NCBI GenBank assembly: GCA_012455605.1
Contig: GCA_012455605.1_3618.2
Direction: 5' to 3' (one strand)
DNA length: 46,310 nt
DNA from: a phage
Shown: in pieces, positions 5,233-27,100 of the stretch
How positions within the stretch are numbered: the stretch's first letter is position 1
Layout of the letters: each line of letters starts with the position of its first letter
The notes under the pieces: generated by a model
Seen by the model: the letters and a program-made list of their open reading frames with translations, nothing else
Told to the model about the DNA's origin: nothing
Database searches by the model: none
Program-made: the position numbers and the translations under genes

Positions 5233-8200
5233 ATGGCTGATATTAAAGTTGTCAGAATTGAATCTCTTCCTGCCACTACCGCAGTGACAGAGGATGATTA
5301 CCTGGTTGTTCAACAACCAGACCTGACCCGTCGTGTAAAAATTGGCGATGTTGTCCATGTGGATGGGACTGTTTCTCATGTAATCTCCTTTAAGGAAGGT
5401 GGTAAGTTAAACGGCCCAATGGATTTTGCCTACTTCGAAGAGGAAGACCTCTACCTGCGTTGGAAAGGCGAATTTCCACACACTGTTCCTGCACTATCTT
5501 CACCGTACGCTGATGGTGGGATTACTGACGCTGCATGGATGGTATATACTGACCCGTCCTTAAGGGAGGAGTTGGAATCTACCATTGGCGCATCTATGAT
5601 CATGACAGCCGAAGGGCAGTCTGTCCAGGATGTAATGGATGTTACTGTTCAGACAGCTAACGATGCTAAAGCCCTTGCACAGCGTGTAGATTTTGGTACA
5701 GTGCACACTGTAGGTGATGTTATCCACCTTGATAACTTTGTTGGCCCTGCAGTTATTGAAGAGGGAAGAACCACCAACTATCCCTCCGTAGCAGCTGGTG
5801 AAAAATTTCTGAACGGTGTGGTATCTCGTCGTGATACTACAACTGTTGATGGTATTTTCCGTGGAGCTACCTCCGGAGCTATGTATACCATCGCAGTAAC
5901 CAACGGTGTAGCGACAACAAAAAGAATAGCACTTCGTGATGAATTTAAACGCCTGGAGGCAAACAACCCAACAAGAACAGTTATCCGTGCTGGAGATGAT
6001 TTAAACACGGCAGGGTACTTGCAGCTTGATGCAACAGGCCGTTGGGGTATGTGGAACCAACAAACAGCCTCGTGGCAACCTCTTGCTATAGAGCAAGGCG
6101 GTACAGGGGCCAGAGATGCCGCTGGAGTCCGTATCAATATCGGGGCTTTCTATAAGCAACGTGCAGCCCTTGAGCCAAATTTCAATATCAATAACTTGAC
6201 TGGTAATCAGGATGGTGTATACTACCAGCCGATGACTGCTTATGCAACTGAGGCAAATGGTTACCCTGCAGGTTCTGGTGCTGGTCACTTGATTGTTTGG
6301 CAGAACAATGCTAACGGCGGTACAGGTTGTCGTCAGGAATACTACCCATTCTCTAACGTAGATGTTTGGTATTTGAGAACCTATCAGGCCAACACAAACC
6401 AGTGGACTGCATGGCAGCCGATGGTCAGACCTCGTAACGATGATACCTTTAGAGCGCACATCGGTCTTGGTCCTAGAAATACCCCTACCTTCGGGCACAT
6501 TTACCTGTCTCAAAGTTCTGCTGATGTTAAGTCAGCCTCGGGTATTGTTAACGGGGACAAATACAGCGCTGACGGTGTCCTTGAGCATGGATATAGGATC
6601 TATTCTGAGGTAAGAAACGACAATAAGGCTTGGTTGACAATCCACCTGCATAAAGGTGCAAAAGGATCTGAAACTCACAGATATTTAGGTTTCCGCGAAG
6701 ACGGAGTATTAGACTGCCCTAAATACATGCAGGTTGGGGATCTCACTGGTCAGCTGACAAACTGGGGACTTGGAGAGTGGATCCGTAGTTCAGGGGCAGA
6801 AAGAGGCTTCTGGGGGTCCAAGAAAGCCGCCAAGATGGTTGTCTGGGATGGTGGGATGGACGAATCCGGTAACGGCACTCTGGAATGGGGTGTTTATAAC
6901 AACCGGAAGGCCAAGTGGGAACCTTTACCTCAAGCCGCAGGTGGCACTGGAGCTACAACTTTAGCAGATGCTCAGAATCTGTTCAAAGTTCCTATAGCAG
7001 CAGGTGTGAAAGACTTCTTAACACTGCCAAGAACCGCAGGGATGGAAGATGGGAAATACTACCCGATCATCGTTAGAACAGATCCGTACTATGCTCCAGC
7101 AACTGGTACTGATATTACCATAGTTACCAGATCGTCATCTGGAAATGACCCTATGAACTGTGCTACCTTACAGTGTCACTATAGAACTGGTGGTTGGACA
7201 GACAGAGGAGACTCTTTCTACGGGGTAGTAAATTTCTACCAGAATGAAAAAGCACTTCTTGGGATGGTTGCTCCAACAAGGGGTAAACAAGAATATGTTG
7301 CTTTCTATGCAGAGGCGCGTGCTTTCCCTGTCAGCATATACGCAAGTAGAAATGTTGTCGAGGTGTTTACCAGGGAGCAAGATTACCAGGTTGGCTCTGT
7401 AACAGACAATCAGGACGGTGTTAAGTTCGTTGCACCTCTCCAGTCAGCAGATTTAAATCTGGCTGTTCTCGGAGATAACAATACCAACACCAGACCTATT
7501 GTTGACTTCAAAGGTACCTCTGGGTTCTACACTGGCGGCGGCACACAGTGGCACTATATAGGCACTGCTGAACGCTATGCGATAATGAGCAAAATGAACA
7601 TGCCTAAAGTAGAGCTATGGGCTGACGGTTTTGACTATTTGTGCTACAGTGGTCCTAGAAAGGCGCTATTCTCTAACGCAGGATTCCAGTGTGCATCAGA
7701 TGGAACAGAGGATCTAACTAACGGCACGTTTACCTCTAAATGCGGTAATGGTGCTGGCCTTAAAGGTCAAGCAGAGTTCAGGTCTACTCCAGAGGCTGGT
7801 CAAGTTATTGTTCGAGATGTTGTGGGCACAGCTCATAGATTCTACAACTTCAATAAGGATGGTACTTTTTCAGCCCCAGGTGGTTTTGTATGTCATACTG
7901 GTGGAGACTGGAACAACCAGTTCGGGCCTAATAACCCGTCAAAAATAATGGCTGGTAATGTTAACGGTCCACAAGACACCATGGTTGTAGGAGGTTTATC
8001 TGTAGGATTCTCGGGAAACTACGCTTTCCAGATTGCTGGCAGACAAAGTAACTTATACACCAGGTCTATAGAAGGCGGTAATCACCACCCTTGGAATAAG
8101 GCTATGCAGCACAGGGGTCAGGGTCTCGGTACCTCAGACCTTGACACCTATAATGGGTTGTGGGAAGGCATTTACCATCAATCGGCAAATAATGATGCAA

Positions 8201-9045
8201 CATATGATCGTCATTATCCGGTAAATGAAGCTGGAACACTTATTGTGTTGCAGAATAACGCCAATAACGGTAATGGGTGTGTTCAAGAGTATATTACCTA
8301 TCACGGCGATAGATTTATACGTTATGGTAATATGGTGAGACAAACCTTCACTTGGGGCCCGTGGACCCAAACAGGTGGCAATGGTGTTAGCTTCAGATAT
8401 GGAGGAACAACTCCCGAAGGGGAAATACCGACCTCAGAGTTAAAGGTATATATTTCTGGAAGCCATGTTACTAATAACGGTGGCAACATGCCTGCGAATA
8501 GCGCTCATATGCACTATTGGGGCAACGGCAGCACAGGGGATCGCCCAAACGTGTTAGAGTTTAAGGTTCTTGACGAGTCTCAAGCAAATTGGGTATGGCA
8601 TTGCGGTACCTTGCCGGATAAATCAAGATATCTTTCTGTAAACGGTGCTGTGAATTGCACATCTGTCAATCAGAGTTCTGACAGAGACCTGAAAGACAAC
8701 ATATCTGTTATTCCTGATGCGTTAGAAGCTATCCGGAAGATGAAGGGTTATACCTACACTTTAAAAGAGAATGGTATGCCTTATGCAGGTGTTATAGCAC
8801 AAGAAGTGCTTGAAGCACTGCCGGAAGCAGTTAGCTCTTTCGTGCAAAGAAAGGAAATCCCAAACCCTGATCAAGATGGAACTCCTTTGATAACAGAGGA
8901 AAGATTCTACAGCGTGGATTACGCAGCCGTAACAGGCTTGCTTGTCCAGGTTTGCAGAGAACAGGACGATAAAATAACCGCCCTTGAGGAGCAGGTTAAA
9001 AAATTGACAGAGGTTGTTACTGGGTTGCAAGAGAAACTGAAGTAA
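5233..9045 (+). CDS. Long tail fibre protein with C-terminal intramolecular chaperone (peptidase S74-like) domain
   Basis: 1270 aa. N-terminal anchor homologous to gene 1930. Internal fibre-repeat motifs (WxPLxxxxGGTGA...A..N). C-terminus SDRDLKDNISVIPDALEAIRKMKGYTYTLKENG...AQEVLEALPE...coiled coil matches the Ser-Lys autoproteolytic chaperone pattern of endosialidase/T5 L-shaped fibres. Confidence 0.7.
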   Translation: MADIKVVRIESLPATTAVTEDDYLVVQQPDLTRRVKIGDVVHVDGTVSHVISFKEGGKLNGPMDFAYFEEEDLYLRWKGEFPHTVPALSSPYADGGITDAAWMVYTDPSLREELESTIGASMIMTAEGQSVQDVMDVTVQTANDAKALAQRVDFGTVHTVGDVIHLDNFVGPAVIEEGRTTNYPSVAAGEKFLNGVVSRRDTTTVDGIFRGATSGAMYTIAVTNGVATTKRIALRDEFKRLEANNPTRTVIRAGDDLNTAGYLQLDATGRWGMWNQQTASWQPLAIEQGGTGARDAAGVRINIGAFYKQRAALEPNFNINNLTGNQDGVYYQPMTAYATEANGYPAGSGAGHLIVWQNNANGGTGCRQEYYPFSNVDVWYLRTYQANTNQWTAWQPMVRPRNDDTFRAHIGLGPRNTPTFGHIYLSQSSADVKSASGIVNGDKYSADGVLEHGYRIYSEVRNDNKAWLTIHLHKGAKGSETHRYLGFREDGVLDCPKYMQVGDLTGQLTNWGLGEWIRSSGAERGFWGSKKAAKMVVWDGGMDESGNGTLEWGVYNNRKAKWEPLPQAAGGTGATTLADAQNLFKVPIAAGVKDFLTLPRTAGMEDGKYYPIIVRTDPYYAPATGTDITIVTRSSSGNDPMNCATLQCHYRTGGWTDRGDSFYGVVNFYQNEKALLGMVAPTRGKQEYVAFYAEARAFPVSIYASRNVVEVFTREQDYQVGSVTDNQDGVKFVAPLQSADLNLAVLGDNNTNTRPIVDFKGTSGFYTGGGTQWHYIGTAERYAIMSKMNMPKVELWADGFDYLCYSGPRKALFSNAGFQCASDGTEDLTNGTFTSKCGNGAGLKGQAEFRSTPEAGQVIVRDVVGTAHRFYNFNKDGTFSAPGGFVCHTGGDWNNQFGPNNPSKIMAGNVNGPQDTMVVGGLSVGFSGNYAFQIAGRQSNLYTRSIEGGNHHPWNKAMQHRGQGLGTSDLDTYNGLWEGIYHQSANNDATYDRHYPVNEAGTLIVLQNNANNGNGCVQEYITYHGDRFIRYGNMVRQTFTWGPWTQTGGNGVSFRYGGTTPEGEIPTSELKVYISGSHVTNNGGNMPANSAHMHYWGNGSTGDRPNVLEFKVLDESQANWVWHCGTLPDKSRYLSVNGAVNCTSVNQSSDRDLKDNISVIPDALEAIRKMKGYTYTLKENGMPYAGVIAQEVLEALPEAVSSFVQRKEIPNPDQDGTPLITEERFYSVDYAAVTGLLVQVCREQDDKITALEEQVKKLTEVVTGLQEKLK

Positions 9046-9147: not shown

Positions 9148-9738
9148 ATGTTTTTATGGGAAAGGCCTAGATACCTTCCAGATATTAGATTGGAGCTGCT
9201 GGCAGATATTGTTACGTTTAAAAGTCCGTTTACAGGTAAAGCGCAAAAAGTAACCTATGCCACGCCCAACTGGAAAGGCACTTTAACGGTTTCCAATATC
9301 AGCGAGTCACAGTTGTTAGAGCTTAAAAGCTTTGTTGATCAGGTGTATAAAGATGGAAACATCTTTCTTATTAAAACTTACGGTCACTCAGTTACAGCTA
9401 ATGAGCCAATCGCCCTTGGGCCTACTGGTAACGACGATTTTTTGAAGACGGTTGGGTGGGAGCCAAACAGAGACATAGCCAGAGCCGGAGATAAAATATC
9501 TGTCAATGATGAATTGAAAGTGGTAACAGCTCCAGTGCGTAGCGATGGTGTTGGGTCTGCTGTTATAAGCATATCTCCAAGACTTAGAAAACCTATTGCC
9601 GCAGGGGACACTATGAAGATAATAACTCAATCTCCGAAGGGCAGGTTTCATATTAGAGATATTTATAAAATTAAGCAAAAAGTCGATGCTATGCAAAAAG
9701 GTGATAATATAGTTATCAACTTCTTTGAGGATTTCTAA
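9148..9738 (+). CDS. Tail tip/baseplate-associated protein, unassigned
   Basis: ATG with AGGAGG RBS; first gene of a four-gene translationally coupled unit ending in the J-like fibre. No family recognised by eye. Confidence 0.4.
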   Translation: MFLWERPRYLPDIRLELLADIVTFKSPFTGKAQKVTYATPNWKGTLTVSNISESQLLELKSFVDQVYKDGNIFLIKTYGHSVTANEPIALGPTGNDDFLKTVGWEPNRDIARAGDKISVNDELKVVTAPVRSDGVGSAVISISPRLRKPIAAGDTMKIITQSPKGRFHIRDIYKIKQKVDAMQKGDNIVINFFEDF

Positions 9739-9739
9739 G

Positions 9740-10291
9740 ATGATTAGAGCGCCATTAGATAATTTATTTCTTGAAAAACTGGAGCTTGATGGTGTTGAGA
9801 TCTTGATTGCTGCAAAACTGGAGCTCCCGACAGGAACTGTCAGGGTGTGCTCAGGTACTGGTGTTGTAGTAATTGAGGGACAACATTTTATAGGGATAGG
9901 TGGATCAGCAACATTAACTGCTGTGTCTGAGAAAGATGCCACCAACTTCGGATCTGTGGTAGCAACATTAAACGGGTTTGATCCTAAGTATGTGGGTGAT
10001 CTGCTGAAGACGGAGTATTCTGGTTGTCGTGCCACGTTGTACATTACCGCTATGGAGAATGGTCTGCCTGTTACAACTAATGGCTTGTTTGACGGACTTA
10101 TAACAGATATGGCTATTCAGACGGGTGAGAATAGTGCTTTGTCCATATCCATCTCTTCCATCTTCAACAGTTGGTTAAGAGGTTTTCCTTATCGGTACAC
10201 GGAGGAAAGCCACAGCTCAAGAAACGATAATGACAGATTTTTTAAATATGTGGATCAGGTGGCGAGCCGCCCGATCATTTGGGAGGTTTAA
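9740..10291 (+). CDS. Tail tip assembly protein, unassigned
   Basis: Track start 9725 is TTG; ATG at 9740 with GAGGA upstream chosen. Stop overlaps next start (TAATG at 10289-10293). Confidence 0.4.
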   Translation: MIRAPLDNLFLEKLELDGVEILIAAKLELPTGTVRVCSGTGVVVIEGQHFIGIGGSATLTAVSEKDATNFGSVVATLNGFDPKYVGDLLKTEYSGCRATLYITAMENGLPVTTNGLFDGLITDMAIQTGENSALSISISSIFNSWLRGFPYRYTEESHSSRNDNDRFFKYVDQVASRPIIWEV

Positions 10292-10716
10292 TGAGCACGC
10301 ATCCTCGTCTAGTGGACTGGCAAGAAAGGTTGTGGAAAGTATTTGACGAAGAGGCAACCATACCTTTTGAATGGGGATTCCACGATTGTTGCACTTTTGC
10401 GGCTAAGTGTGTTGATGCCCAATACGGAACAGATTTTCTTTCTAACTTCGAAGGAACGTATAAAACAGAGTTGGAAAGCAAGAGATGGTGCATGCTCCGT
10501 TTCAAAACCACACACCTGCCTACTATTTTTGATCTCTTTATGACTCGGCTGGATACTCCTAAACAGGTTCAGCGTGGAGATATTGTCATTTTCGAAGGTC
10601 TGAACGGCCTCACCGCTGGTGTGTTCTGGAACAACCAGATTTGGGCGAAAGGTGATAAAGGGGTCTTTATGTTCGACATGAAAGATTCTATCGTTGTTGA
10701 TGTCTGGAGGTATTAA
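10291..10716 (+). CDS. Tail assembly protein, lambda gpK-like NlpC/P60-type cysteine peptidase domain
   Basis: ATG at 10291 (track TTG start at 10279 rejected), RBS GGGAGG. Motifs GFHDCCTF and GDIVIFEG...LTAGVFWNNQIWAKG resemble the C-terminal domain of lambda K. Immediately upstream of the J-like gene with TAATG overlap. Confidence 0.5.
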   Translation: MSTHPRLVDWQERLWKVFDEEATIPFEWGFHDCCTFAAKCVDAQYGTDFLSNFEGTYKTELESKRWCMLRFKTTHLPTIFDLFMTRLDTPKQVQRGDIVIFEGLNGLTAGVFWNNQIWAKGDKGVFMFDMKDSIVVDVWRY

Positions 10717-13700
10717 TGCCAATTGCAATGATTGATAACATCGTTGCTTCTGCAAGATCTTCAAGTTATGACTGGAACGCATCCAAGGCAGCTCTGGCTG
10801 ACAGCCTGAACACTGTGACCACCAGAACTTTGGATAAGATTTTTGAGGGCAACAAATCTTACAGAAGTCAGCAAGATAGACAAAAGCTTCTCAGATCTTC
10901 TGCTGCACCTTGCTCTGTAGTGTATGGAAAGACACGCACATCTGGATTGCTTGCGTTTTTGGAGCAGGATAGCGACAGAACCCTCCATTGTGCTATTGTT
11001 CTTGCCAATCACCCTCTGGAAGGTATAGAAGATATACTTATCGACGGTAATCCTATTTCCTCGTATGGAGATCTGGTATCGTGGGAGCTACATAACGACA
11101 GAAAAACATCTGATCCTTTCATGGGTACACACTGCCCATCATGGTCACCTGACATGATAGGTAGAGGGATCAGTTGGCTACGTGCCAGCTTCAGGTTTGA
11201 CCCTAACAAGTTTCCTTTTGGGTTGCCAAACGTTACACTCGTCAAGATTGGTAAAAAATGCTATGATCCTCGTATCAGTAAAGAGGTGTACACCAATAAC
11301 GCTGCCTTGGTGATCCTAGACTATTTAAGAACGTACCTTAAATGTCCTGACGAAACCATCAACTGGGAGTCCTTCAAGGAGGCTGCCAACATATGCGACG
11401 AGGCGGTAAAAAACGCAGACGGAACCAGTGAGCGCCGTTACACCATTAACGGTGAGTTTGACATGGATGAGGCCCCAGCAAGTATTATGGCAGAAATGCT
11501 GAAAGCTTGCGGTGCAGATCTTAGTTATGTTGCTGGTAAGTATGGTTTGCTGGTTGGTGCATACTATGGCCCAGCAACAATGACACTTAGTGAGGACTGT
11601 GTCTGTGGTGAGGTTAAGATCTATCCGGAAGCCTCATTTGACAAAAGATCCAACACAATAACTGGCAGATTCACTAGCCCGACCAAAGGGTATTCTGAAA
11701 CAGATTTTCCATCAGTGTTTGTCCCAGAGTGGATAGAGAAGGATGGAGAAAGAAAGATAATCGATATAGATTATCGCTTTGTTACCAGTCCTTATCAAGC
11801 TCAGCGTGTTTCTGCAATCTTCCTAAGACGTGCTAGAGCTGGCAGGATTATTGAAGTCACCTGCAATATGCGAGGTTTTAAATTTAAGCCTGGCCGTTAT
11901 GTTACAATGGACCTCCCAAGTATTGGTATCGTGGGCCAAGAAATGAGGGTTCTTGAATGGGAGTTCACCAAAAAGGGCGGTGTCAAGGTAAAACTTCGTC
12001 AAGATGCTAAAGAGTGGAATGATGCCACAGGGCAACTTCCGGATTCCGGCGATGTAGATATTCCGATATCCCCGTCCGGTGTAGCTCAGCCGCAAAACTT
12101 CAGATACTCCGTTCTCCAAGCTGGGGAAGTAACTCACGGTGTTTTGGCCTGGGACAACGTTGGGACTTACGCTCAAAATATTGTGCAGGTAAGAAAGAAC
12201 GGAGAGATTGTTTGGACAGCACAGACAGTTGAGCAGTTTGTCCGTGTTGAAGGTCTGACTAAAGGTTCCTACACAGCCACTGTTGTTGCAACATCTTATA
12301 AAGGTGGTGTATCTCCAGAAGCGTATTGTGAGTTTAACATTCAGGCACCTGAAGCTCCGGTTTCTGTAGAGGTTAAGCAAGGATACTTTGCTATCACCTT
12401 GATTCCGCATAGTAGGGATTTAGCAAGTGTTAGCACCCAGTATGACTTTTGGACATCCGGTATGACAAGGTTGCCCGACACCAGTGATGCAACCGTTACT
12501 TCAAACGCCACCCGTATGGGTGTTGGTTCAACTTGGACATCTGAAGGTCTGCAGAACGATAAGGTTTATTATTGGTATATTCGAACCACAAACGCTTTTG
12601 GTAGTTCTCAGTTTGTAGAATGCGCTGCACGCTGCTACACCTCTATTGAGGATTTGATGCCTCAGATAGATGCTGAATTCAAAAAGACAGAAACTTATAA
12701 AGAGTTGATGAGCACTTTGGATTCCTCTATTGAAGAGGTTGAAAATCGTGTCACAGAACTTAACAGGTACATGGATGGTAGGGTAGATGAGGCATTCCAG
12801 CAACTTGGAGACAGAATAGGTGCGGTAGTTACAGAGACAACTCAGAAGTTCGAGGATGTCAATGGCAATATCACAGCGCTGGATAGGAAACTTGTTGCTG
12901 CACAGAACAAGTTCACCAACGATCTGAACACTGAAAGTGGAAGATTGGCATCCCTGATTGAGACAACCAATAAAGCAACTACTGATCTTCTGAACAAAAA
13001 GACAGAGGCTTTAGATGAGAAATTGGTTGCCGCCAAAGGTGAGCTGGTAGAGCAGATAGAAGGAGTTGAGAGCGGGTATTTAGCCGGAGATAAAACTCTA
13101 GATGGTAAGATTAATACTCAGAGAACAGAACTTGACGCAAGCATCTTGAGCACTAACCAGGCCACTGTGGATCTTTTGAACAGGACATCTGAAACTCTGG
13201 ATCAAAAGATTAGTCAGACAAACGCGACGGTATCTAAAAACTATACCACCCTTGACGGCAAGATAACTACCGCAAAAACTGACCTCAACACCTTGATTGC
13301 CAATACCAACAAGGCCACCACTGACTTGTTGAATCAGAAAACATCTGCACTGTCAGAGCAGATAACTTCTGCACGTGGGGAGATTTCTACCAACAAGCAA
13401 GCGATTGATGCTTTGGATGGAAAACTGACCTCCACAAAAACAGCGCTGGATGCTACAATTTCCGATACCAATAAAGCCACTGTGGACCTTATCAACGGCA
13501 CAGCGTCAGCTATTCGTCAAGAACTTGCTGTTGCTAAGCAGGAGATCATTGATGATGTTGGGGATGTGTCTGAGATCAGGGCTGCAGTAGCTACAACATC
13601 TAAGGCTGTAACCGACTTAGAGGGTAAAGTAAATGCTCAATGGGGCACAAAAATACAGGTAGACTCCGCAGGGAATAAATATGTTGCAGGTATTCAGTTG

Positions 13701-14555
13701 GGGATGGAAGGGTCTGGAGGCCAAGTTCAATCCTACTTCATGGTTAGCGCAAACAATTTTGCGGTATACAACCCTGGCAATGGAACAGCAACCCTTGCTT
13801 TCGCAATCAAGAACAACCAAGCGTTCTTGAAAGACGCTTTTATAGAGAATGGCACGATCTCCTCTGCCAAGATTGCACAAGAAATTTCGTCAAACAACTA
13901 CGATGGCAACGGGTACCATAAATACGGTTGGTATATTAACAAGAACGGGCACGCCCAATTTATGGATGTGTGGGTGAAAGGCAACATCAACGCCAGTTCT
14001 GGTAACTTCACAGGGGCAGTTAACGCCACTAGTGGTACCTTCCGTGGGGATGTTTATGCCAATAATGGTAGCTTTAGAGGCACCATAGATGCAACCGGAG
14101 GTACCTTCCGTGGTCGTGTAGAAGCTTCTGTTATCCGCGCTAACCAGTTCGAAGGTGCAATTGTTGCACACAGGACTTACGGAGATTGTGCTCCAGTATA
14201 TAACTCCCAGCAAAGGGTTTGCCGTTGGAGGTGGAGATACGTAGATAACGTTTCAGGTCAGGGTAAGAACGTAACATTCTTCTTTAAACTGAATGGTACT
14301 CTTGCCAGCTCCCAGCTTAACGTTTGGATAGCCGGACATCAAATCCTTGCAGGTAAGAAGTACGGAAACGACAACAACGGCATGTGTGCGGTAGGGATAA
14401 CGGGTCTTGGTGAACAAACCATAGATATTGTTGTTGAAATCTACACACCATGGTCAACGTCTTCTGTAACAGGGGTCGCAATATCCTGTCCTACTGTTGT
14501 GGTAAGCCGTTCTAACTCTAGTTTCCAAGGACCTTGGAACGAGTCTCACGACTAA
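10716..14555 (+). CDS. Tip attachment / central tail fibre protein, lambda gpJ-like
   Basis: 1279 aa. Multiple segments co-linear with lambda J as recalled: NNAALVILDYL (vs NNMAWCLWDML), FN3-like region, GYFAITLIPH / YDFWTS / YYWYIRTTNAFGSSQFVE, KYVAGIQLGMEG...QSYFMVSANNFAVYNPGNG, C-terminal GxFxG repeats (SGNFTGAVNATSGTFRGDVYANNGSFRGTIDATGGTFRG). Confidence 0.8.
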   Translation: MPIAMIDNIVASARSSSYDWNASKAALADSLNTVTTRTLDKIFEGNKSYRSQQDRQKLLRSSAAPCSVVYGKTRTSGLLAFLEQDSDRTLHCAIVLANHPLEGIEDILIDGNPISSYGDLVSWELHNDRKTSDPFMGTHCPSWSPDMIGRGISWLRASFRFDPNKFPFGLPNVTLVKIGKKCYDPRISKEVYTNNAALVILDYLRTYLKCPDETINWESFKEAANICDEAVKNADGTSERRYTINGEFDMDEAPASIMAEMLKACGADLSYVAGKYGLLVGAYYGPATMTLSEDCVCGEVKIYPEASFDKRSNTITGRFTSPTKGYSETDFPSVFVPEWIEKDGERKIIDIDYRFVTSPYQAQRVSAIFLRRARAGRIIEVTCNMRGFKFKPGRYVTMDLPSIGIVGQEMRVLEWEFTKKGGVKVKLRQDAKEWNDATGQLPDSGDVDIPISPSGVAQPQNFRYSVLQAGEVTHGVLAWDNVGTYAQNIVQVRKNGEIVWTAQTVEQFVRVEGLTKGSYTATVVATSYKGGVSPEAYCEFNIQAPEAPVSVEVKQGYFAITLIPHSRDLASVSTQYDFWTSGMTRLPDTSDATVTSNATRMGVGSTWTSEGLQNDKVYYWYIRTTNAFGSSQFVECAARCYTSIEDLMPQIDAEFKKTETYKELMSTLDSSIEEVENRVTELNRYMDGRVDEAFQQLGDRIGAVVTETTQKFEDVNGNITALDRKLVAAQNKFTNDLNTESGRLASLIETTNKATTDLLNKKTEALDEKLVAAKGELVEQIEGVESGYLAGDKTLDGKINTQRTELDASILSTNQATVDLLNRTSETLDQKISQTNATVSKNYTTLDGKITTAKTDLNTLIANTNKATTDLLNQKTSALSEQITSARGEISTNKQAIDALDGKLTSTKTALDATISDTNKATVDLINGTASAIRQELAVAKQEIIDDVGDVSEIRAAVATTSKAVTDLEGKVNAQWGTKIQVDSAGNKYVAGIQLGMEGSGGQVQSYFMVSANNFAVYNPGNGTATLAFAIKNNQAFLKDAFIENGTISSAKIAQEISSNNYDGNGYHKYGWYINKNGHAQFMDVWVKGNINASSGNFTGAVNATSGTFRGDVYANNGSFRGTIDATGGTFRGRVEASVIRANQFEGAIVAHRTYGDCAPVYNSQQRVCRWRWRYVDNVSGQGKNVTFFFKLNGTLASSQLNVWIAGHQILAGKKYGNDNNGMCAVGITGLGEQTIDIVVEIYTPWSTSSVTGVAISCPTVVVSRSNSSFQGPWNESHD
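12948..13640 (+). repeat. In-frame tandem repeats (~55-60 aa unit, 4-5 copies) encoding a coiled-coil stalk inside the J-like gene
   Basis: Repeating peptide pattern xTNKATTDLLNxKTxALxExIxxAxxEIxxxxxxLDGKIxxxKTxLD (ETTNKATTDLLNKKTEAL / STNQATVDLLNRTSETL / NTNKATTDLLNQKTSAL / DTNKATVDLINGTASAI). Confidence 0.6.
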
Positions 14556-14660: not shown

Positions 14661-16151
14661 GTGGCTAAGTATGGATTGACAGAGGCTGGTTTCGTTATAC
14701 CAACCCTAAATGACCTAATCGTTGAAACTAAGCAAAGCCTGATCCGTGCTTTTGGCGAAAACTTCAACGTACAGAGTAACTCCGTTGCAGATAAGCTGAC
14801 CACTATCTTCAACGAGCGAGAGTATCAACTTATTCTTATGGCAGCATCTGTATACGCATCACAGACGCTGTATGGGGCAGAAGGTATTTACCTGGATGAG
14901 CTTCTTGGAAGACAGGGTATTTACCGAAGAGGCCGTTCTAAATCATCAGGTACCTGCCAGTTGACAATCAACACAACTGTGCCGTACAATATGATTTATG
15001 ATTCCAAAACTTATACGCTGGACAGTGGCAACTTTGTTCTTAGCAACGATGTGCAAGTAGCAGGGAATCTTATTGCTCACAGAATAAATGCTCCAGACCT
15101 AAGGATTGGTAAATACAACTTTCAAATTACCAACCAGACAGATGGAAGTATCAAAACAAAAAGTCTGGTTTTAACAGATAAGTCTCTGGACTCTTCTGAT
15201 TTGCCAAGCTTTTACGGAGAGATTAAGCGATTCATTGTCGATAATACAACCCTGTTGAACGACGATTTGATTCAGGTCGATATGTTGACAGGAACGTTGT
15301 GGATAGGGTACAATTCGAATCTTGATCAAGTTGGACTTAATAGTAGAGTAGATTTCAGAGTATCCCCGATTGTAGGGGAAAGAACTATCACCCTGGATGT
15401 TATCGCTAACGAGGCTGGTGAGCTGTCAAGAGAGGCAGAAACCGTGACAACAATGTCACCTACCCCCAGTGGATTTATCAAGCTTACCAACCGAGAAAGA
15501 TTCAATGAGGGCAGGGATGTTGAGAAAGACTCAGAGTATCGCTTAAGAGCTTCCAGCACAAAACAGTTAACATCTAAGGCTACCCGTCCTGCAATCCTTA
15601 GCGCTGTAAGCGAGGTGAAAGGTGTTGAGAAAGTGAGGGTGTTCTCCAACAACACCGATAAAACTGATGCTAAAGGTATACCTCCTTACAAGTTCCAAGT
15701 GGTTGTGTTTGGTGGTGCAACGGAGGACATTTGCCAAGCACTTTACCAAACTATAGCCTGTACTAACAGGACTTATGGTAATATTTTCTACGATGTCACT
15801 ACATCTGATGGTCAAACTGAAAGAATTTATTACTCCAAGGCAAATACCTACCGCCTAGATGTAAGAATTACCTACTCCGGTGCCGCACTTTCCACAACCG
15901 AAAAAGATGCCATTGTAGAGGCTCTTTTGCAGGTTGTTAACGGACTGGATGTTGCAGATACGTTGTATAATATCCAATTGGTCGGCGCTGCATCTGCTGC
16001 TGTATCAATAGGCAGATTTAATAGACTGGTAATTCAAGTTAAACCAGTAGGAGCTTCTGATGAAGCTTACACTACAAACGATATTGTTGCGAACATGACC
16101 GAGGTGTTTGACCTCGACGAAAGTAATATAACTTTCCAACAAACTATTTAA
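14661..16151 (+). CDS. Baseplate wedge protein, Baseplate_J-like
   Basis: GTG start 5 nt after GGAGG. Position after W/tip genes and before I-like gene; segments such as YLDELLGRQGIYRRG and C-terminal ...TEKDAIVEALLQVVNGLDV are reminiscent of P2 gpJ-family proteins (recalled, not aligned). Confidence 0.5.
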   Translation: MAKYGLTEAGFVIPTLNDLIVETKQSLIRAFGENFNVQSNSVADKLTTIFNEREYQLILMAASVYASQTLYGAEGIYLDELLGRQGIYRRGRSKSSGTCQLTINTTVPYNMIYDSKTYTLDSGNFVLSNDVQVAGNLIAHRINAPDLRIGKYNFQITNQTDGSIKTKSLVLTDKSLDSSDLPSFYGEIKRFIVDNTTLLNDDLIQVDMLTGTLWIGYNSNLDQVGLNSRVDFRVSPIVGERTITLDVIANEAGELSREAETVTTMSPTPSGFIKLTNRERFNEGRDVEKDSEYRLRASSTKQLTSKATRPAILSAVSEVKGVEKVRVFSNNTDKTDAKGIPPYKFQVVVFGGATEDICQALYQTIACTNRTYGNIFYDVTTSDGQTERIYYSKANTYRLDVRITYSGAALSTTEKDAIVEALLQVVNGLDVADTLYNIQLVGAASAAVSIGRFNRLVIQVKPVGASDEAYTTNDIVANMTEVFDLDESNITFQQTI

Positions 16152-16162
16152 GGCGGCGAGAT

Positions 16163-16849
16163 ATGGCAGAGATTAAGTCGGATGTTAACCACATCCACAC
16201 TCTGCCAGATTTTGTTCAGGGAGGTCTTGACTACCTGCCTGGAGATTTTCTGGCTGAGAAGGTTAATTTGGTCACATTCTTAACCGTGTACCTTAAAAGG
16301 TTGGAGGATGTTGATAAGATGCTGGTAGGTTTGGCTGAAGGAAGATTGCTTAACAATGCCAGCGGAAGATACCTTGACGAAGTTGGTAATCAACTTGGTA
16401 TTCTTAGGAATGGACTTTCAGATGCTGATTTTCGTGCCACACTAATTATTCAGCAGGCCGCAGCATCAAGGGGCGGGACTCGCGAAGATGTCATCTCCAC
16501 CTTGCGACAATTGTTCGGAAGAGACAATTTCGATACGTGGAAAGGAGACAACTTCAGGTTTGACATAAATATTAGAAAAACTTGCTTTGACATATTGCAG
16601 TCTATCGATCAGATCTTAGATATGCTACCATTGCCTTGTCATTTGCGTCTTACAGAATCGCAAGGGCAAGCTTTTGGTTTTGAAGGGGACTCTACAGCTC
16701 TTGGCTTCGGATCAGTGTGGGAAGAAAACCAATTCGGAGTTGGTGGGCTGGCTACTTTGCTATATGTTCCTGACGTAAGACCTGATTGGGACACCACAAC
16801 CATTTATTGTGAAAGTATTACAGTAAACGCAACTAGACAGGAGGGTTAA
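16163..16849 (+). CDS. Baseplate protein, possibly gpI-like
   Basis: 228 aa, immediately downstream of J-like gene, stop overlaps next start (TAATG). Assignment is positional. Confidence 0.35.
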   Translation: MAEIKSDVNHIHTLPDFVQGGLDYLPGDFLAEKVNLVTFLTVYLKRLEDVDKMLVGLAEGRLLNNASGRYLDEVGNQLGILRNGLSDADFRATLIIQQAAASRGGTREDVISTLRQLFGRDNFDTWKGDNFRFDINIRKTCFDILQSIDQILDMLPLPCHLRLTESQGQAFGFEGDSTALGFGSVWEENQFGVGGLATLLYVPDVRPDWDTTTIYCESITVNATRQEG

Positions 16850-18921
16850 TGGCAACAGCTGTTTTTAAACCTTACCGTGATTACTCTACAATGGCTGCAC
16901 AGTTTCATTACCGAACAGTTCAGGATACTGCCGTTCCTGGTAGGGATTATAATCATGTTGAGGGCGATGTAACTATCCCAATTGGGGCAACCAGTATTGA
17001 GATCCCCGTGGAAATTGTTGACAAATTACCCAACAGGTTGCCAAGAAGCTTCTTTATGGAGTTTTCATCAAAATCTCAAGGGGTGATGATTGGAACACAA
17101 AGGGCGAAATGTACAATAGTTTCAGATGAGAATCTTGACAGGATATCTTGGGATACTGTTGAGGAGAGAATGTTTCACCCAAGGTATTGGGTTACAACTA
17201 CTCAGCAGACTGAAAGTACCTGTATTGTTGCAGATAACAACTGTTGTATTAACCGTTTAGTGTCAAGAACATATGGAGGTATGGCTGGGTGCATTTGGGA
17301 AACAGTTGACAAGTATGACCATTTCGGTATTGGGTTTGATGATCATTATGAGATGAGAAATACCAAGCTTTGGTTCAGAATGTCAATAACCAACGCCAGC
17401 AACTTCTCCACTCCTGAAAAGATGATTATGACTGTAGACCTTGTTGATGGCACAATCATCTATGTTCCTTTAGCTCAATATGCTGTCAGCATCTCAGAGG
17501 ATAAGAATGTTGCAGAAATTCATATTGATTTCGAGGACTGCGTCGGGATGGACCAGAACAACAATATGATGGGTGTTGATCCTCGACAGGTGAGAAGGAT
17601 TTTAATACCGCTTATGCCTAAAGATTGGGTAAGCAATAGCACAAACCCAAGAACGGAAAATGTAGAGTGTGAGTTACGCCTAGATCTGCTTCAGCCAGAC
17701 ACAGGCTGGAAAATGATGCAACTTAACAATATTCAGGTGAAAGAACACGACGTTGGGATCTGCACAGCATATGACGATATGTGGAACGTGTCTCCTTTAA
17801 GGGTGTTGAACAATATCAAGCGTCTGGGCTATACCGGAACCATAAACCATTATGTTGGTATGAGTCATTATTATGACTACACATGGTCAGGAACTCAATG
17901 GTCTATAAACAGAACAGGAGCGCTAAACGCTGCAGCTTATAAATGGCATGATGATTTTATGTACAATGCCAAACGACATAACTTCGACGTTATGCAATCT
18001 GTAAGTTTTGAGCTTTTCAGCGATGCCTGCCCGTTGGAATGGACCCAAAGAGACTGGAACGATAACTACGCTAAAACAGGGTATACACCTTGTAGCTACC
18101 TCCTGTCTCCAACCATTGAAGAGGGTATGAATTTCCTTACTGCAGTATTTAAGAATTTTGCATCAGCCGCTATGAGAAACAACCTGCCAGTGATTATGCA
18201 GGTTGGTGAACCGTGGTGGTGGTACAATACCGATACTCGTAGACCTTGTATTTATGATTACCCTACAAAGCAGGCGTTTTATGATGAGACAGGTGAGTAT
18301 GCATTAGATATTGGGACTATTGACGATCCTAAAACTGGCGGTGTTTACGACAAGTATGTAGCATTTTGTCGTGGTAAGCTTGGCGCTCGTATTGCGGCTA
18401 TTTCAAAGGCAATAAAGGCACACGCTGCATCAGCTCAGATGACAGCTTTGCTGTTTTTCCCAACCATCATGGAAACCGAGCTTACGCAAAAGCTGAACCT
18501 TGCTGACCAATATAAAAAGGAAGCAGGTGCTCTTGATTTCTTCTGCACCGAGTGCTACGATTGGGTGATGCAGGGAGGTATTGAAAAGGCAAAAGAGTCT
18601 GTAAACATACCTATCGTTAAGTTAGGTTGGCAACCGTCTGAAATACAATACCTTGCAGGGTTCGTTCCTAGTAAAGAGCTTGCTCCGGTATATGGCTACG
18701 ACCCAACCAGGAATTACCAAGAATTTTTATGGAGATGTATCTGCGGAAACATGGCAACCATAGAGTATAGATACCCTGAGGTAAAACAGTATGTGTGGGC
18801 ATACCCGCAAGTAATGTCTGACAGCATCACTGTTACAGCCAGAGATTCTACCGTGCTTCATATGGGGCAGGTTGCTCTGAAAGGGTATGTAGAAGATGTT
18901 GTCCCGCCAGACTTCTCATAA
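16849..18921 (+). CDS. Tail-associated protein with N-terminal Calx-beta-like domain
   Basis: 690 aa. N-terminal FHYRTVQDTAVPGRDYNHVEGDVTIPIGATSIEIPVEIVDK fits the Calx-beta pattern; remainder Trp/Tyr-rich, possibly carbohydrate-binding or hydrolase. Occupies the fibre (H) position after the I-like gene. Confidence 0.4.
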   Translation: MATAVFKPYRDYSTMAAQFHYRTVQDTAVPGRDYNHVEGDVTIPIGATSIEIPVEIVDKLPNRLPRSFFMEFSSKSQGVMIGTQRAKCTIVSDENLDRISWDTVEERMFHPRYWVTTTQQTESTCIVADNNCCINRLVSRTYGGMAGCIWETVDKYDHFGIGFDDHYEMRNTKLWFRMSITNASNFSTPEKMIMTVDLVDGTIIYVPLAQYAVSISEDKNVAEIHIDFEDCVGMDQNNNMMGVDPRQVRRILIPLMPKDWVSNSTNPRTENVECELRLDLLQPDTGWKMMQLNNIQVKEHDVGICTAYDDMWNVSPLRVLNNIKRLGYTGTINHYVGMSHYYDYTWSGTQWSINRTGALNAAAYKWHDDFMYNAKRHNFDVMQSVSFELFSDACPLEWTQRDWNDNYAKTGYTPCSYLLSPTIEEGMNFLTAVFKNFASAAMRNNLPVIMQVGEPWWWYNTDTRRPCIYDYPTKQAFYDETGEYALDIGTIDDPKTGGVYDKYVAFCRGKLGARIAAISKAIKAHAASAQMTALLFFPTIMETELTQKLNLADQYKKEAGALDFFCTECYDWVMQGGIEKAKESVNIPIVKLGWQPSEIQYLAGFVPSKELAPVYGYDPTRNYQEFLWRCICGNMATIEYRYPEVKQYVWAYPQVMSDSITVTARDSTVLHMGQVALKGYVEDVVPPDFS

Positions 18922-24113: not shown

Positions 24114-27100
24114 ATGCTTCCAATCCCTTTGCTAAAACTTGGTCGTCATTTCCTCGATAAGAGGGGTGGAATTAAGGAACTTGCTGTTCTGTCATACCCA
24201 ATAGACAACAGTGATGGTACAAGCAATACAGTATCCTATGTAAATAGCTTAGCTATACTTTTTGATGATGGTCAGCTTAATATTACTGGCTATAATAGGT
24301 TCGGAGAGTGTCGGACTGGAGATCTTGATACAATAAACTATCCTAATGAGGCAGCTTGGAACGTAGACCATGTTTGGAGAGCTGACCGTGCATTTGTAAT
24401 CCGCACATTCGATAATAAATTTTTCTATATTGGTTGCACAGCTGGTCTTATCGGATCGGAGGCAGCAGGTGGAAACGATGTTTGTGTCAGAGAGTGGACA
24501 CCTTTGCCGGAACAGATCGTAACAGGGTTGCATTTGGACACCCATCCTGAGAGACTTGTTGAAGTAATGGGTGGGGTAAACAATACAGTGTGGGTAATTG
24601 CTGCACCAGAGGCTGATGGTATGCTTCACCTGTACGGCTCTGGCAATAATACTTACGGCTCTCTTCATGTTGACAAAAATCAGCATGCAACCCCTGTAAA
24701 GATTGGTGAGACATCGGAAAATCCTGAAACAGGTCCTTGGAAAAACCCAAGCATCAACTGCGAGGTGCATGACAACTCTGTTATTTTCGGTGGTCCTAGA
24801 GGTTTCTGGATTGCTGGATATGACTTTCTGAGAAATAACAGTAGAAACGACCTTGTTTGGCCTCCTGTGCAGATTACTCGTAACGATTTGAGGGGCATTC
24901 CTGCAGATGAGGAGTGGAAAGGGTTTATGTGCGGTCCTAACGGGGCAATAATTGCCACACAGAGGATGCATAGACCCGATGACCAGCAGCTTGTTAACGT
25001 ATTTTATGGTCAAAACATTTGGGGGGATGATACATGGCGGGAACTGAATATCACCTACACCCATGAGGTAATAATGGCTCGTGGGTACGGAACAAGTGGC
25101 ATTTTCTTCAATAATGGCACCAAGCAGTATCGTGGATTCTCTCGCAACTTGTGTAATGATATTGGTGCACAATCTGCAAACAATAGTCCTAGGTCCGATT
25201 TTATCCACTATCAAGCTCTTGCTACAGCTAAATATGTTGAGCAACGCCTGCCAGTTAGCTGGACAGAGAGTGTTTATTTCCAAGGCATCCATAGAGAAGG
25301 TTTCTTAGGGACCTTTACTGTTGTTAATGGTAAACTTTGGTGGTCAGGCATCCCAAGGGGAAGTTTTGCAGGCTCTAACAACCTGTTTGGAGGCAGACTT
25401 AATAGCCAGGGGTTCACAGAGGTTCCTGAGAATTGGTATAAAAATGTCCCAGTAGATAGTTGGGGTGTTGATGATATTTTTGACGTTAACGGTGTTAGCA
25501 GCGTTAGCAATATCTACATTGGTGACACGGTCAAGATGAAATTGAAGCCTCAGCCAGAGGGAGCTACGTTCATTATTGACAAGATTGAACTGGTAAATGC
25601 TGCAGGTACGGTTGTTACAGATGCAAATTACCAATTCTCCACCAACTGGAACCACGGCGGGGCCAACGAAGTTGTTGTTACTCAGTATAACAGGAATGTG
25701 AACAGACGTGGCCTGTACTCTGTAAAAATAACCTATCATGACAAGCATGGCACAGGAAGAACGCACACGACAAGGACCTTGAACTGGAACACCATAGTTC
25801 CTGCGTATCCTTCTGACGGTAAGTGGCATACTGTCGGTAGAAACAAACAGTTCCATGTTAATGACACTGTATACTTCGGGCTGAATGGGACTCAGCCTGC
25901 GGTAGAAGGGGATACATCGTATATGGTCCGACTCCACAGAATGGATGCTGGATCAGTCACTTATGATGTTACCCAAGAGATTTATGATCAGAGACGAAAT
26001 ACCTACAACAACTTAGTGCAGACACAGGCCGTATGGGAGTTCAACCCTAACGGCAGAGGTGGTAAAATGTTGCAGGTTAACGAGCAAAACGGAACGTCGT
26101 TGACTGTCCACGAACACCCAGACCCTTGGCCTGATCCTGGAAAACCTCACCCAGGTGCTCGTACACTGAAAATTGTCAGCCATGATGCAGGATATTTCGG
26201 AATACGCTGGGAAGCCACAGTAAGATATGCCGACGGGACAACAAACAACATAGGGATTACACTTGGGGGCACCAGTGAGGATAACTCGCTGAAAATTGCC
26301 TACACTCCTAGAGGTATTTCTATTGATAATATGGATGTTGTTCGCAACGGTTACGGGGATGTGAACATCAAAGTTACTCTTGGTGAACATCTTGGCGGGG
26401 AAAGGATCATCATGTACGCCTTTGATCACGACCCCCGCACTGACGGAACCTATGCAGACCAAGCGTGGAGCTACCTGATAAGCGCACCTGAGCCAAATAC
26501 CAAAGAATTCTACTACGGTATGAAACGGGATGTGTGCAAGAAAACAGGGACACATGACTGGATTGCAATCTGCGTTAAAGATGAACGTACCGCTTGGGAC
26601 GAGCCTGTTAACAGATGGTTCATAGGAATTCCCACTCGAAGTGATAAATACGTTGAAGAATATATTGTATGCATGGGCGGCACCAACCTCAACATGTGTT
26701 GGAACGAGGATGCAAACAAATACTCTGATTACGATTATATGAGGGATTACTCTTGCAATCAATGGTTTAACCAAACCGGGTATGCTAATCGACAGTCAAG
26801 AGTAAACCCTGCAATCTTTACAGATACGCAGGTTTTCTTGACAAAACAGGCCAACGAGGTTCAGACCTTCAAGAACAAATACGACCCTAACAAGTGGTTT
26901 TATAACTGTTATGGCGCATTTTTCTGGGGGCCAGGGGAACTGCCTAACGGGGGATCTTGCTTCGAGGCTTCAACTTACGCCAGTGATTACATCATGGGGC
27001 AGGTTAAGAAGTATAAGATAATTCCAGGGCCTGAAACTCTTGGTAATGCCGTTGATCCTTATATCATCATGACTGCGCTGAGATCAAACATGGACGGGAC

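Follow-up and report, generated by a model that had tools for sequence, protein, structure and literature searches.

The lambda tail protein gpJ and the central fibres of other siphoviruses and of F-type pyocins follow a common order of parts, from a hub-like N-terminus through immunoglobulin/fibronectin type III (Ig/FN3) domains, a helix and a DUF1983 tip to a C-terminal distal domain, and coiled coils of varying length have already been noted for this class of proteins in a structural atlas (PMC12143355). The same order is found in a lambda-J-like fibre protein encoded by the phage DNA examined for the current report, a stretch of 46,310 nucleotides (nt) that is referred to below, at its full length, as the window (NCBI GenBank assembly GCA_012455605.1, contig GCA_012455605.1_3618.2). 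The source phage is a Vequintavirus, i.e., an rV5-like myovirus of E. coli. Its fibre protein differs from lambda J in having a helical segment of ~334 amino acids (aa) where lambda J has almost nothing, and from the siphovirus J proteins in that it belongs to a myovirus with a baseplate hub of its own. This segment contains an in-frame array of four repeat units, preceded by a degenerate one, and we consider it probable that the array forms a modular alpha-helical coiled-coil stalk in which the units, set between conserved caps, serve as a rigid spacer.

The fibre gene is 99.9% identical in DNA to that of Escherichia phage slur16 and 97-99% identical to those of rV5 and many further Vequintavirus genomes, the matched genomes being those of contractile-tailed coliphages of ~137 kb. 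The rV5 orthologue, gp37 (1279 aa), is present in the rV5 virion proteome, and its HHpred matches to hub proteins have been described (PMC3606486). A study of the BASEL phages by AlphaFold2-multimer reported a Vequintavirinae fibre of this description, with "large coiled-coil domains" and an N-terminus like that of central fibres (PMC12143355). Earlier papers already describe the protein, its long coiled coil and the existence of variable alleles; we did not find in them the architecture of its units, the series of alleles with 2, 3, 4 or 6 units, the recombination junction reported below, or the confinement of the variation to the stalk.

Modular variation in the length of a coiled coil is a familiar theme in phage fibres, trimeric autotransporter adhesins and M proteins, and three systems resemble the present one in different respects. 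The P22 gp26 needle, a solved trimer, carries repeated ...ALDG(R/K)(V/L)T(T/S)... motifs in its coiled-coil stalk, and residues 809-934 of the J-like protein align with residues 100-223 of gp26 in 4LIN, a trimeric coiled coil, at E = 4.5e-4; the similarity is weak and compositionally biased, and gp26, the plug or needle of a podovirus, differs in what surrounds the stalk at its N- and C-terminal ends. 4LIN is an engineered gp26 needle with a duplicated helical core, and in it elongation by added repeats is tolerated. The autotransporter adhesins (YadA, AtaA and BadA), whose stalk length is set by repeat number, are the top non-phage matches to a profile of the units and resemble them in heptads of the type ...LDGRVTxNE...; a hydrophobic period of ~3.65 residues with regular stutters, as found here, also fits such stalks. 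The adhesins are nevertheless bacterial surface proteins, the likeness is to the second half of the unit alone, and the phage protein has no head, neck or membrane anchor, so that the resemblance is one of analogy and not of membership. The F7 pyocin fibre, a J-like protein, has a coiled coil immediately upstream of the beta-prism of its tip; the fibre of the window differs from it in that the SxSxxMxxLxS pattern shows no clear enrichment, in a two-fold variation in length and in being part of a phage with a contractile tail.

Repeat units in a predicted coiled-coil stalk

The stalk extends, as a predicted helix, from the second Ig/FN3-like domain to the Phage_Tail_Tip domain. Residues 497-678 of the fibre protein align with residues 666-844 of lambda J, and residues 955-1116 with residues 842-991; since the two aligned parts of lambda J adjoin each other (844 and 842), ~275 residues are extra here, at a point where lambda J is essentially empty. 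The sequence-only reading from which this work set out had placed an expanded repeat array where lambda J has only a short linker, and had counted four to five in-frame copies at 12948-13640. Both points hold: the units that we could delimit number four and occupy 12963-13646, with a degenerate unit 0 upstream of them (Table 1).

Each of the four units opens with TN(K/Q)AT(T/V)DL(L/I)N, the TN[KQ]AT motif beginning at aa 751, 813, 864 and 918, and ten positions (T2, N3, A5, T6, D8, L9, N11, L46, G48 and K49) are invariant. The boundaries were drawn by delimitation on this motif and by alignment with MAFFT. The scores of the window's own units against a hidden Markov model (HMM) are self-derived; the same model, built from the window units, detects units in the proteins of other phages at E = 1e-11 to 1e-25, and these matches are not circular. 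Unit 0 has lost the TNKAT head and retains the second half of the 44-aa type of unit that is found in other alleles (see below). Unit 4 has a conserved head and a diverged C-terminal half that runs into the tip domain; its tail is a conserved C-terminal cap, TSKAVTDLEGKVNAQWG, leading into that domain. When the stalk was compared with itself, the best 15-residue BLOSUM62 diagonals at offsets of 62, 51, 54, 105, 113 and 167 scored 46-65, as against a mean of 29.6 and a maximum of 44 for 200 shuffles of the stalk segment, whereby chance similarity is excluded.

The periodicity expected from a self-comparison is clear in the protein but nearly erased in the nucleotides. Tandem Repeats Finder detected no DNA tandem array in the unit region. 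All that recurs in the DNA is the 30-nt head motif, with 70-77% identity at spacings of 186, 153 and 162 nt, while whole units are only 45-53% identical to each other in nucleotides and residues that are identical between units use the same codon in 24-67% of cases. These three observations together indicate that the duplication of the units is old. The array is therefore in-frame and of coiled-coil type, as had been proposed, but the expansion that produced it is ancient rather than recent. A recent expansion, or a hypervariable contingency locus, was rejected because of the negative result with Tandem Repeats Finder and because near-identical isolates share one length.

The predicted structure is that of a nearly continuous helix. 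A single-sequence AlphaFold2 model of aa 640-1110, with a mean pLDDT of 57, was used for secondary structure alone, and DSSP assigned helices in it, at low to moderate confidence (pLDDT 43-80), to aa 644-784, 792-949 and 951-976. The main break, ESGYLAG, falls inside unit 1 (Table 1); the other is a single residue at aa 950, and there are no further breaks in the stalk. A Foldseek search of the PDB with this model gave no match at E <= 0.001. The hydrophobic residues of the stalk recur with a period of 3.65 residues (power 2.48, as compared with 1.87 for the 99th percentile of shuffles), and the heptad register is shifted, mostly by +4 (stutters), every 20-30 residues; heptads interrupted by stutters are typical of long fibre and adhesin stalks. 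The helix and the period together bear out the earlier expectation of a coiled coil. All of the unit lengths can be made up from heptads and hendecads, but this argument was dropped, since the same is true of ~80% of the integers in the range.

When a four-unit profile was compared with 1.84 billion representative proteins, the full unit was found in Vequintavirus J proteins alone; the weaker matches were mainly to the second half of the unit and came from the stalks of trimeric autotransporter adhesins and from other phage fibres. Units 3 and 4 show a weak similarity (E = 1.7e-4), which includes the unit 4 cap, to the coiled coil of the F2 pyocin fibre. Outside of the Vequintavirus phages, the nearest orthologue (53% identity) belongs to the siphovirus Seuratvirus SLUR76; this J protein has both caps in common with the window protein (N-cap DLMPQID.EFKKTETYKEL, C-cap TSKAV.DLEGNVNAQWG) and a stalk of ~115 aa with no clear units. 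The occurrence of the same caps around a short, unit-free stalk in SLUR76 indicates that the units are a Vequintavirus-specific insertion or expansion between conserved caps.

Stalk alleles of the Vequintavirus phages

Four classes of stalk can be distinguished by the number of their units. The 3-unit class, represented by FFH2 and LL12, encodes a protein of 1199 aa with units of 44, 47 and 62 aa; its 43 GenBank records are all at least 99% identical, and the stalk query covers 738 nt in 42 of them and 739 nt in the frameshifted record of phage Alma. The 4-unit class, to which rV5, slur16, FV3 and the window belong, encodes a protein of 1279 aa with units of 62, 51, 54 and 61 aa and has ~58 GenBank records, which are 90-99.6% identical, the stalk measuring 1014 nt in every record listed. 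The 6-unit class (A140, BP9, ECP32 and NHEP1; 13 GenBank records) encodes a protein of 1381 aa in which two additional 44-aa units precede orthologues of the window's four. The orthologue of the window's unit 1 in the 6-unit allele is unit 3 (73% nt identity), and unit 4 of the window is 93% identical in nucleotides to the last unit of that allele. The 2-unit class consists of a single record, that of the O157 typing phage 14, with a protein of 1174 aa in which units 2 and 3 are missing. The host of isolation is E. coli in every class.

Length is constant within each of the three main classes. The best 120 homologues in a collection of 5.8 billion proteins, all at least 99% identical to the window protein, have 1279 aa, with the exception of one of 1280, and only the 3-, 4- and 6-unit classes were found in IMG/VR and metagenome contigs. 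The suggestion that repeat number could vary between isolates holds, then, for related Vequintavirus phages, which have 2, 3, 4 or 6 units, but not for close isolates, whose classes are invariant in length. The variants are discrete, deeply diverged lineage alleles, together with one recent deletion.

This deletion is that of typing phage 14, whose protein is the window protein minus exactly 105 aa. The corresponding 315-nt deletion is clean and crosses over exactly at an 11-nt sequence, GCCACTGTGGA, that is common to the heads of units 2 and 4, and the rest of the gene is 97-98% identical to that of the window. The deletion is in no other GenBank record, and a scan of IMG/VR for the exact pattern of its junction gave zero matches.

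A few database records of this gene have peculiarities of their own. In the V18 reference record (NC_041937, 3001-5744) the J gene is without ~aa 641-988, and thus without any of the stalk, and a frameshift divides it into two open reading frames (ORFs), and in phage Alma (OV101294, 5330-5343) it is split by a frameshift within unit 1; these defects could be assembly errors or real mutants. Eighteen records labelled "UNVERIFIED Campylobacter phage" (MG0656xx) are, by their sequences and by their own taxonomy line, Vequintavirus coliphage genomes.

Between the classes, the fibre proteins are 98-100% identical in amino acids outside of aa ~655-960; within this stretch, which also has insertions and deletions, the identity is only 22-84%. 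Over the C-terminal 320 aa, which include the likely distal binding domain, identity between classes is 88-100%. Synonymous divergence (dS) is 0.14-0.26 in the flanks of the stalk, as compared with 1.4 within the stalk for the 6-unit versus the 4-unit allele and saturation for the 3-unit versus the 4-unit allele, an alignment that pairs partly non-orthologous units and thereby inflates divergence. The ratio of nonsynonymous to synonymous divergence (dN/dS) is ~0.09 in the stalk and ~0.02 in the flanks. Since dS in the stalk is far above that in the flanks, the stalk alleles are much older than the gene that surrounds them, and the presence of old alleles in young flanks points to cassette exchange by recombination and not to fast local evolution. 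Hypervariation of the type generated by diversity-generating retroelements was rejected, since synonymous sites are saturated as well and the divergence is cassette-like, with insertions and deletions.

The stalk is one of three islands to which divergence between Vequintavirus species is confined in the 30-kb fibre locus. The other two are the C-terminal half of a gene for an S74-chaperone fibre (~6500-9000) and the gene for an 1877-aa protein (24114-29747), the island of the J stalk itself being at ~12500-13500. By position, the three islands match the three genes with "allelic variation" of the BASEL study, where these genes were taken to encode distal, host-contacting parts of the fibres (PMC8594841). 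The neighbouring S74-chaperone fibre gene differs in composition between phages: in FFH2 (9563-14334 of its record) the gene encodes a protein of 1479 aa and is followed by an extra ORF of 110 aa, and in the window (5233-9045) it encodes a protein of 1270 aa with no extra ORF. Strict matching of stalk length to this neighbouring gene was rejected as an explanation of the stalk alleles, since its FFH2-type allele occurs with 3-, 4- and 6-unit stalks.

Domains of the fibre protein and its genetic neighbourhood

The features of the fibre gene are collected in Table 1.

Table 1. Location of the fibre gene and of its domains, stalk units and repeated head sequences in the window
Feature	Position (nt)	Strand	Residues (aa)	Basis
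Gene for lambda-J-like fibre protein (rV5 gp37 orthologue)	10716-14555	+	1279 in total	ORF listing and translation
Two Ig/FN3-like domains, directly N-terminal to the stalk	12192-12671	+	493-652	Pfam, alignment with lambda J
Conserved N-terminal stalk cap, DLMPQIDAEFKKTETYKEL...	12645-12839	+	644-708	Predicted helix from aa 644; common with SLUR76 J
Degenerate unit 0	12840-12962	+	709-749	Aa 716-735 weakly matched by the HMM; 44-aa units of phage A140 used for comparison
Unit 1	12963-13148	+	750-811 (62)	Delimitation, MAFFT
Main predicted helix break, ESGYLAG, inside unit 1	13068-13088	+	785-791	DSSP on AlphaFold2 model
Unit 2	13149-13301	+	812-862 (51)	Delimitation, MAFFT
11-nt GCCACTGTGGA, head of unit 2	13161-13171	+		Identical to 13476-13486
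Unit 3	13302-13463	+	863-916 (54)	Delimitation, MAFFT
Unit 4	13464-13646	+	917-977 (61)	Delimitation, MAFFT
Second copy of 11-nt GCCACTGTGGA, head of unit 4	13476-13486	+		Identity with the head of unit 2
Phage_Tail_Tip (DUF1983, PF09327)	13584-14006	+	957-1097	Pfam, 132.4 bits (cut-off 22)
C-terminal region: short GxFxG repeats, then distal domain	14007-14552	+	1098-1279	Translation

The 1279-aa protein matches PHROG 31, "central tail fiber J", at E = 1.7e-163, and the labels given to the gene in GenBank differ ("central tail fiber J", "tip attachment protein J" and "lateral tail fiber protein with fibronectin type III domain"). In its N-terminal hub-type region, residues 33-684 match a Seuratvirus J protein at E = 2.6e-258, and the matches to the J proteins of psageK9 and Vibrio phages begin at ~residue 50 or at residue 1. 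The first of the two Ig/FN3-like domains (Ig_J, PF24421, aa 493-545) scores 24.7 bits, which is below the 29-bit cut-off, and the second (Ig_J_second, PF24489, aa 547-652) reaches 106 bits (cut-off 27). The C-terminal region is 88-100% identical across the stalk alleles, i.e., nearly invariant, and we infer for it a receptor-binding role. Just past the tip domain (~13980-14111, aa ~1089-1132) there are four successive repeats of ~11 aa with the pattern GxFxGxxxAxx (GNFTGAVNATS, GTFRGDVYANN, GSFRGTIDATG and GTFRGRVEAS), which probably form a short beta-helix. The small minus-strand ORFs that overlap the stalk region fall within a gene whose coding status is well supported. No matches were obtained when the window was scanned for Rfam families and for tRNAs.

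The sequence-only reading had called the protein a central fibre. It is J-like by homology, but there is reason to doubt that it is placed centrally in the virion: the tail is contractile, and the phage has its own baseplate hub and a Baseplate_J wedge gene. Part of the neighbourhood is that of a siphovirus: the J-like gene is preceded by genes for a Dit-like protein (phrog_1302), a "tail protein" (phrog_2048) and a DUF6950 protein, the same module as in the Seuratvirus siphoviruses, so that a siphovirus-type tail-tip module (9148-14555) lies within the genome of a myovirus. Further upstream is a canonical myovirus baseplate hub (phrog_196, E = 7.8e-84), the C-terminal part of which is encoded at 38-514; the gene that follows it, at 514-1191, is P2 gpV-like by the annotation of one record and had no hit in the PHROG scan, so that its identity is unconfirmed. 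The Baseplate_J wedge gene is immediately 3' of the J-like gene (within 14661-16151). The related phage phi92, for which the baseplate has been solved, has a conventional hub and spike (PMC13450770). Cryo-electron microscopy of MaxBurger and EmilHeitz, both of which carry the stalk allele of the window, located three of nine annotated fibres, and the J-like protein was not among them (PMC12143355). Beyond the wedge gene, at 16849-18921, is a gene for a 690-aa protein with the Pfam domains NCTSP_N and TIM-barrel_NCTSP ("non-contractile tail sheath protein") and Calx-beta; the NCTSP domains are unexpected in a contractile-tailed phage.

Possible roles of the stalk and of its unit number

The explanation that we favour is a long alpha-helical stalk of coiled-coil type, formed for the most part by the repeat region and presumably parallel and trimeric by analogy to solved J-like fibres and to the gp26 needle. 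Such a stalk would consist of a conserved N-cap, a variable number of 44-62-aa units and a conserved C-cap, the second half of the longer units carrying an LDGK-type motif as in other trimeric fibre stalks. The units were duplicated long ago and have diverged since then. Their number would now change rarely, through in-register unequal recombination between the conserved codons of the head motif, as is shown by the junction in typing phage 14, and whole stalk cassettes would be exchanged between Vequintavirus lineages while the N-terminal anchor and the distal tip remain nearly invariant. Unit number would then set the length of the stalk. Measured from MPQID to AQWG, the stalks of the 2-, 3-, 4- and 6-unit alleles have 221, 246, 326 and 428 aa, which at ~0.148 nm per residue would correspond to roughly 33, 36, 48 and 63 nm, respectively. 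The most likely role of the stalk is that of a rigid spacer that sets the distance of the conserved distal tip from its point of attachment, and it is plausible that stalk length is a property under selection.

Several observations weigh against this explanation, in addition to the inflated divergence of the 3-unit and 4-unit comparison. For the 2-unit allele there is a single GenBank record, and the typing phage in question has been propagated for a long time. The trimeric state and the rigidity of the stalk are presumed, the one AlphaFold2 model being of a single chain, built from a single sequence and of low mean confidence. No phenotype is tied to stalk length, and the alleles differ in sequence as well as in length, so that sequence could be what matters. 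In addition, the stalk allele assorts independently of the allele of the neighbouring variable fibre (the S74-chaperone fibre), which argues against a simple matching of stalk length to that partner.

The variation might also be functionally neutral, if a spacer of this kind tolerates insertions, deletions and substitutions and if old alleles persist and recombine without being selected. The higher dN/dS of the stalk relative to its flanks is a sign of weaker constraint and is consistent with neutrality, as are the isolation of every class on E. coli and the tolerance of elongation in the engineered 4LIN needle with its duplicated helical core. We think neutrality unlikely all the same, since length is strictly invariant in each class despite up to 8-10% nt divergence, the dN/dS of the stalk is well under 1, and the divergence is sharply bounded by the conserved caps, as would be expected of a maintained cassette.

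A different role would follow if part or all of the repeated stalk were a metamorphic spring, a trimeric coiled coil that refolds to a beta-prism upon receptor binding as in the F7 pyocin; unit number would in that event set the size or the energy of the switch and not a static length. A coiled coil of 163 residues directly upstream of the beta-prism of the F7 tip switches its fold and drives puncture, and a similar switch has been predicted in 21 of the 24 J-like proteins of siphophages that were considered (bioRxiv 10.64898/2026.01.28.702463). The array of the window is in the equivalent position, the last residue of the stalk (aa 977) falling within the first part of the Phage_Tail_Tip match, and the weak alignment of units 3 and 4 with the F2 pyocin coiled coil points in the same direction. 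Three of the four matches to SxSxxMxxLxS in the stalk are in unit 4. As judged with a regular expression that approximates the published pattern, however, four matches are to be compared with 3.2 expected, a number reached by 39.5% of shuffles, and there are none in units 2 and 3 and one in unit 1. The switching segment of the pyocins is, moreover, conserved in length, in contrast to the two-fold variation found here, and a puncture engine driven by a fold switch is not obviously needed by a phage that has a contractile tail and its own hub. We regard a metamorphic stalk as rather improbable, and the fuller proposal, in which the stalk or its last units are metamorphic within a siphovirus-type tip module that a myovirus has co-opted, the 2-, 3-, 4- and 6-unit alleles being refolding elements of different sizes, as very doubtful.

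Finally, the units might be docking sites, each of them, or the helix break of unit 1, binding a fibre or an adaptor so that unit number would set the number of partners carried; short interruptions of the coiled coil in such stalks have been suggested, in the work on the F7 pyocin, to be side-fibre attachment sites (bioRxiv 10.64898/2026.01.28.702463), the main predicted break does lie in unit 1, and the Vequintavirus phages encode many fibre proteins of unresolved attachment (PMC8594841, PMC12143355), but the interruption is in one unit type only, being found neither in the 44-aa units nor in any unit of the 3-unit allele, the stalk and neighbouring fibre alleles assort independently, and there is no direct evidence of a partner, so that docking seems quite unlikely to us.

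Should the stalk be metamorphic after all, a new infection mechanism would be extended to a myovirus; otherwise the findings are a tidy example, and not a surprising one, of a fibrous protein that varies in length by modules. Natural, cleanly bounded junctions for the engineering of fibre length are available at the conserved caps and at the heads of the units. The BASEL study flagged variation near this locus as belonging to host-contacting parts (PMC8594841), whereas in the present analysis it is the stalk that varies and the distal tip that is almost invariant. Such confinement of the variation to the stalk directs attention to reach, geometry or the binding of partners, rather than to receptor specificity, as what may differ between the fibres of these phages.

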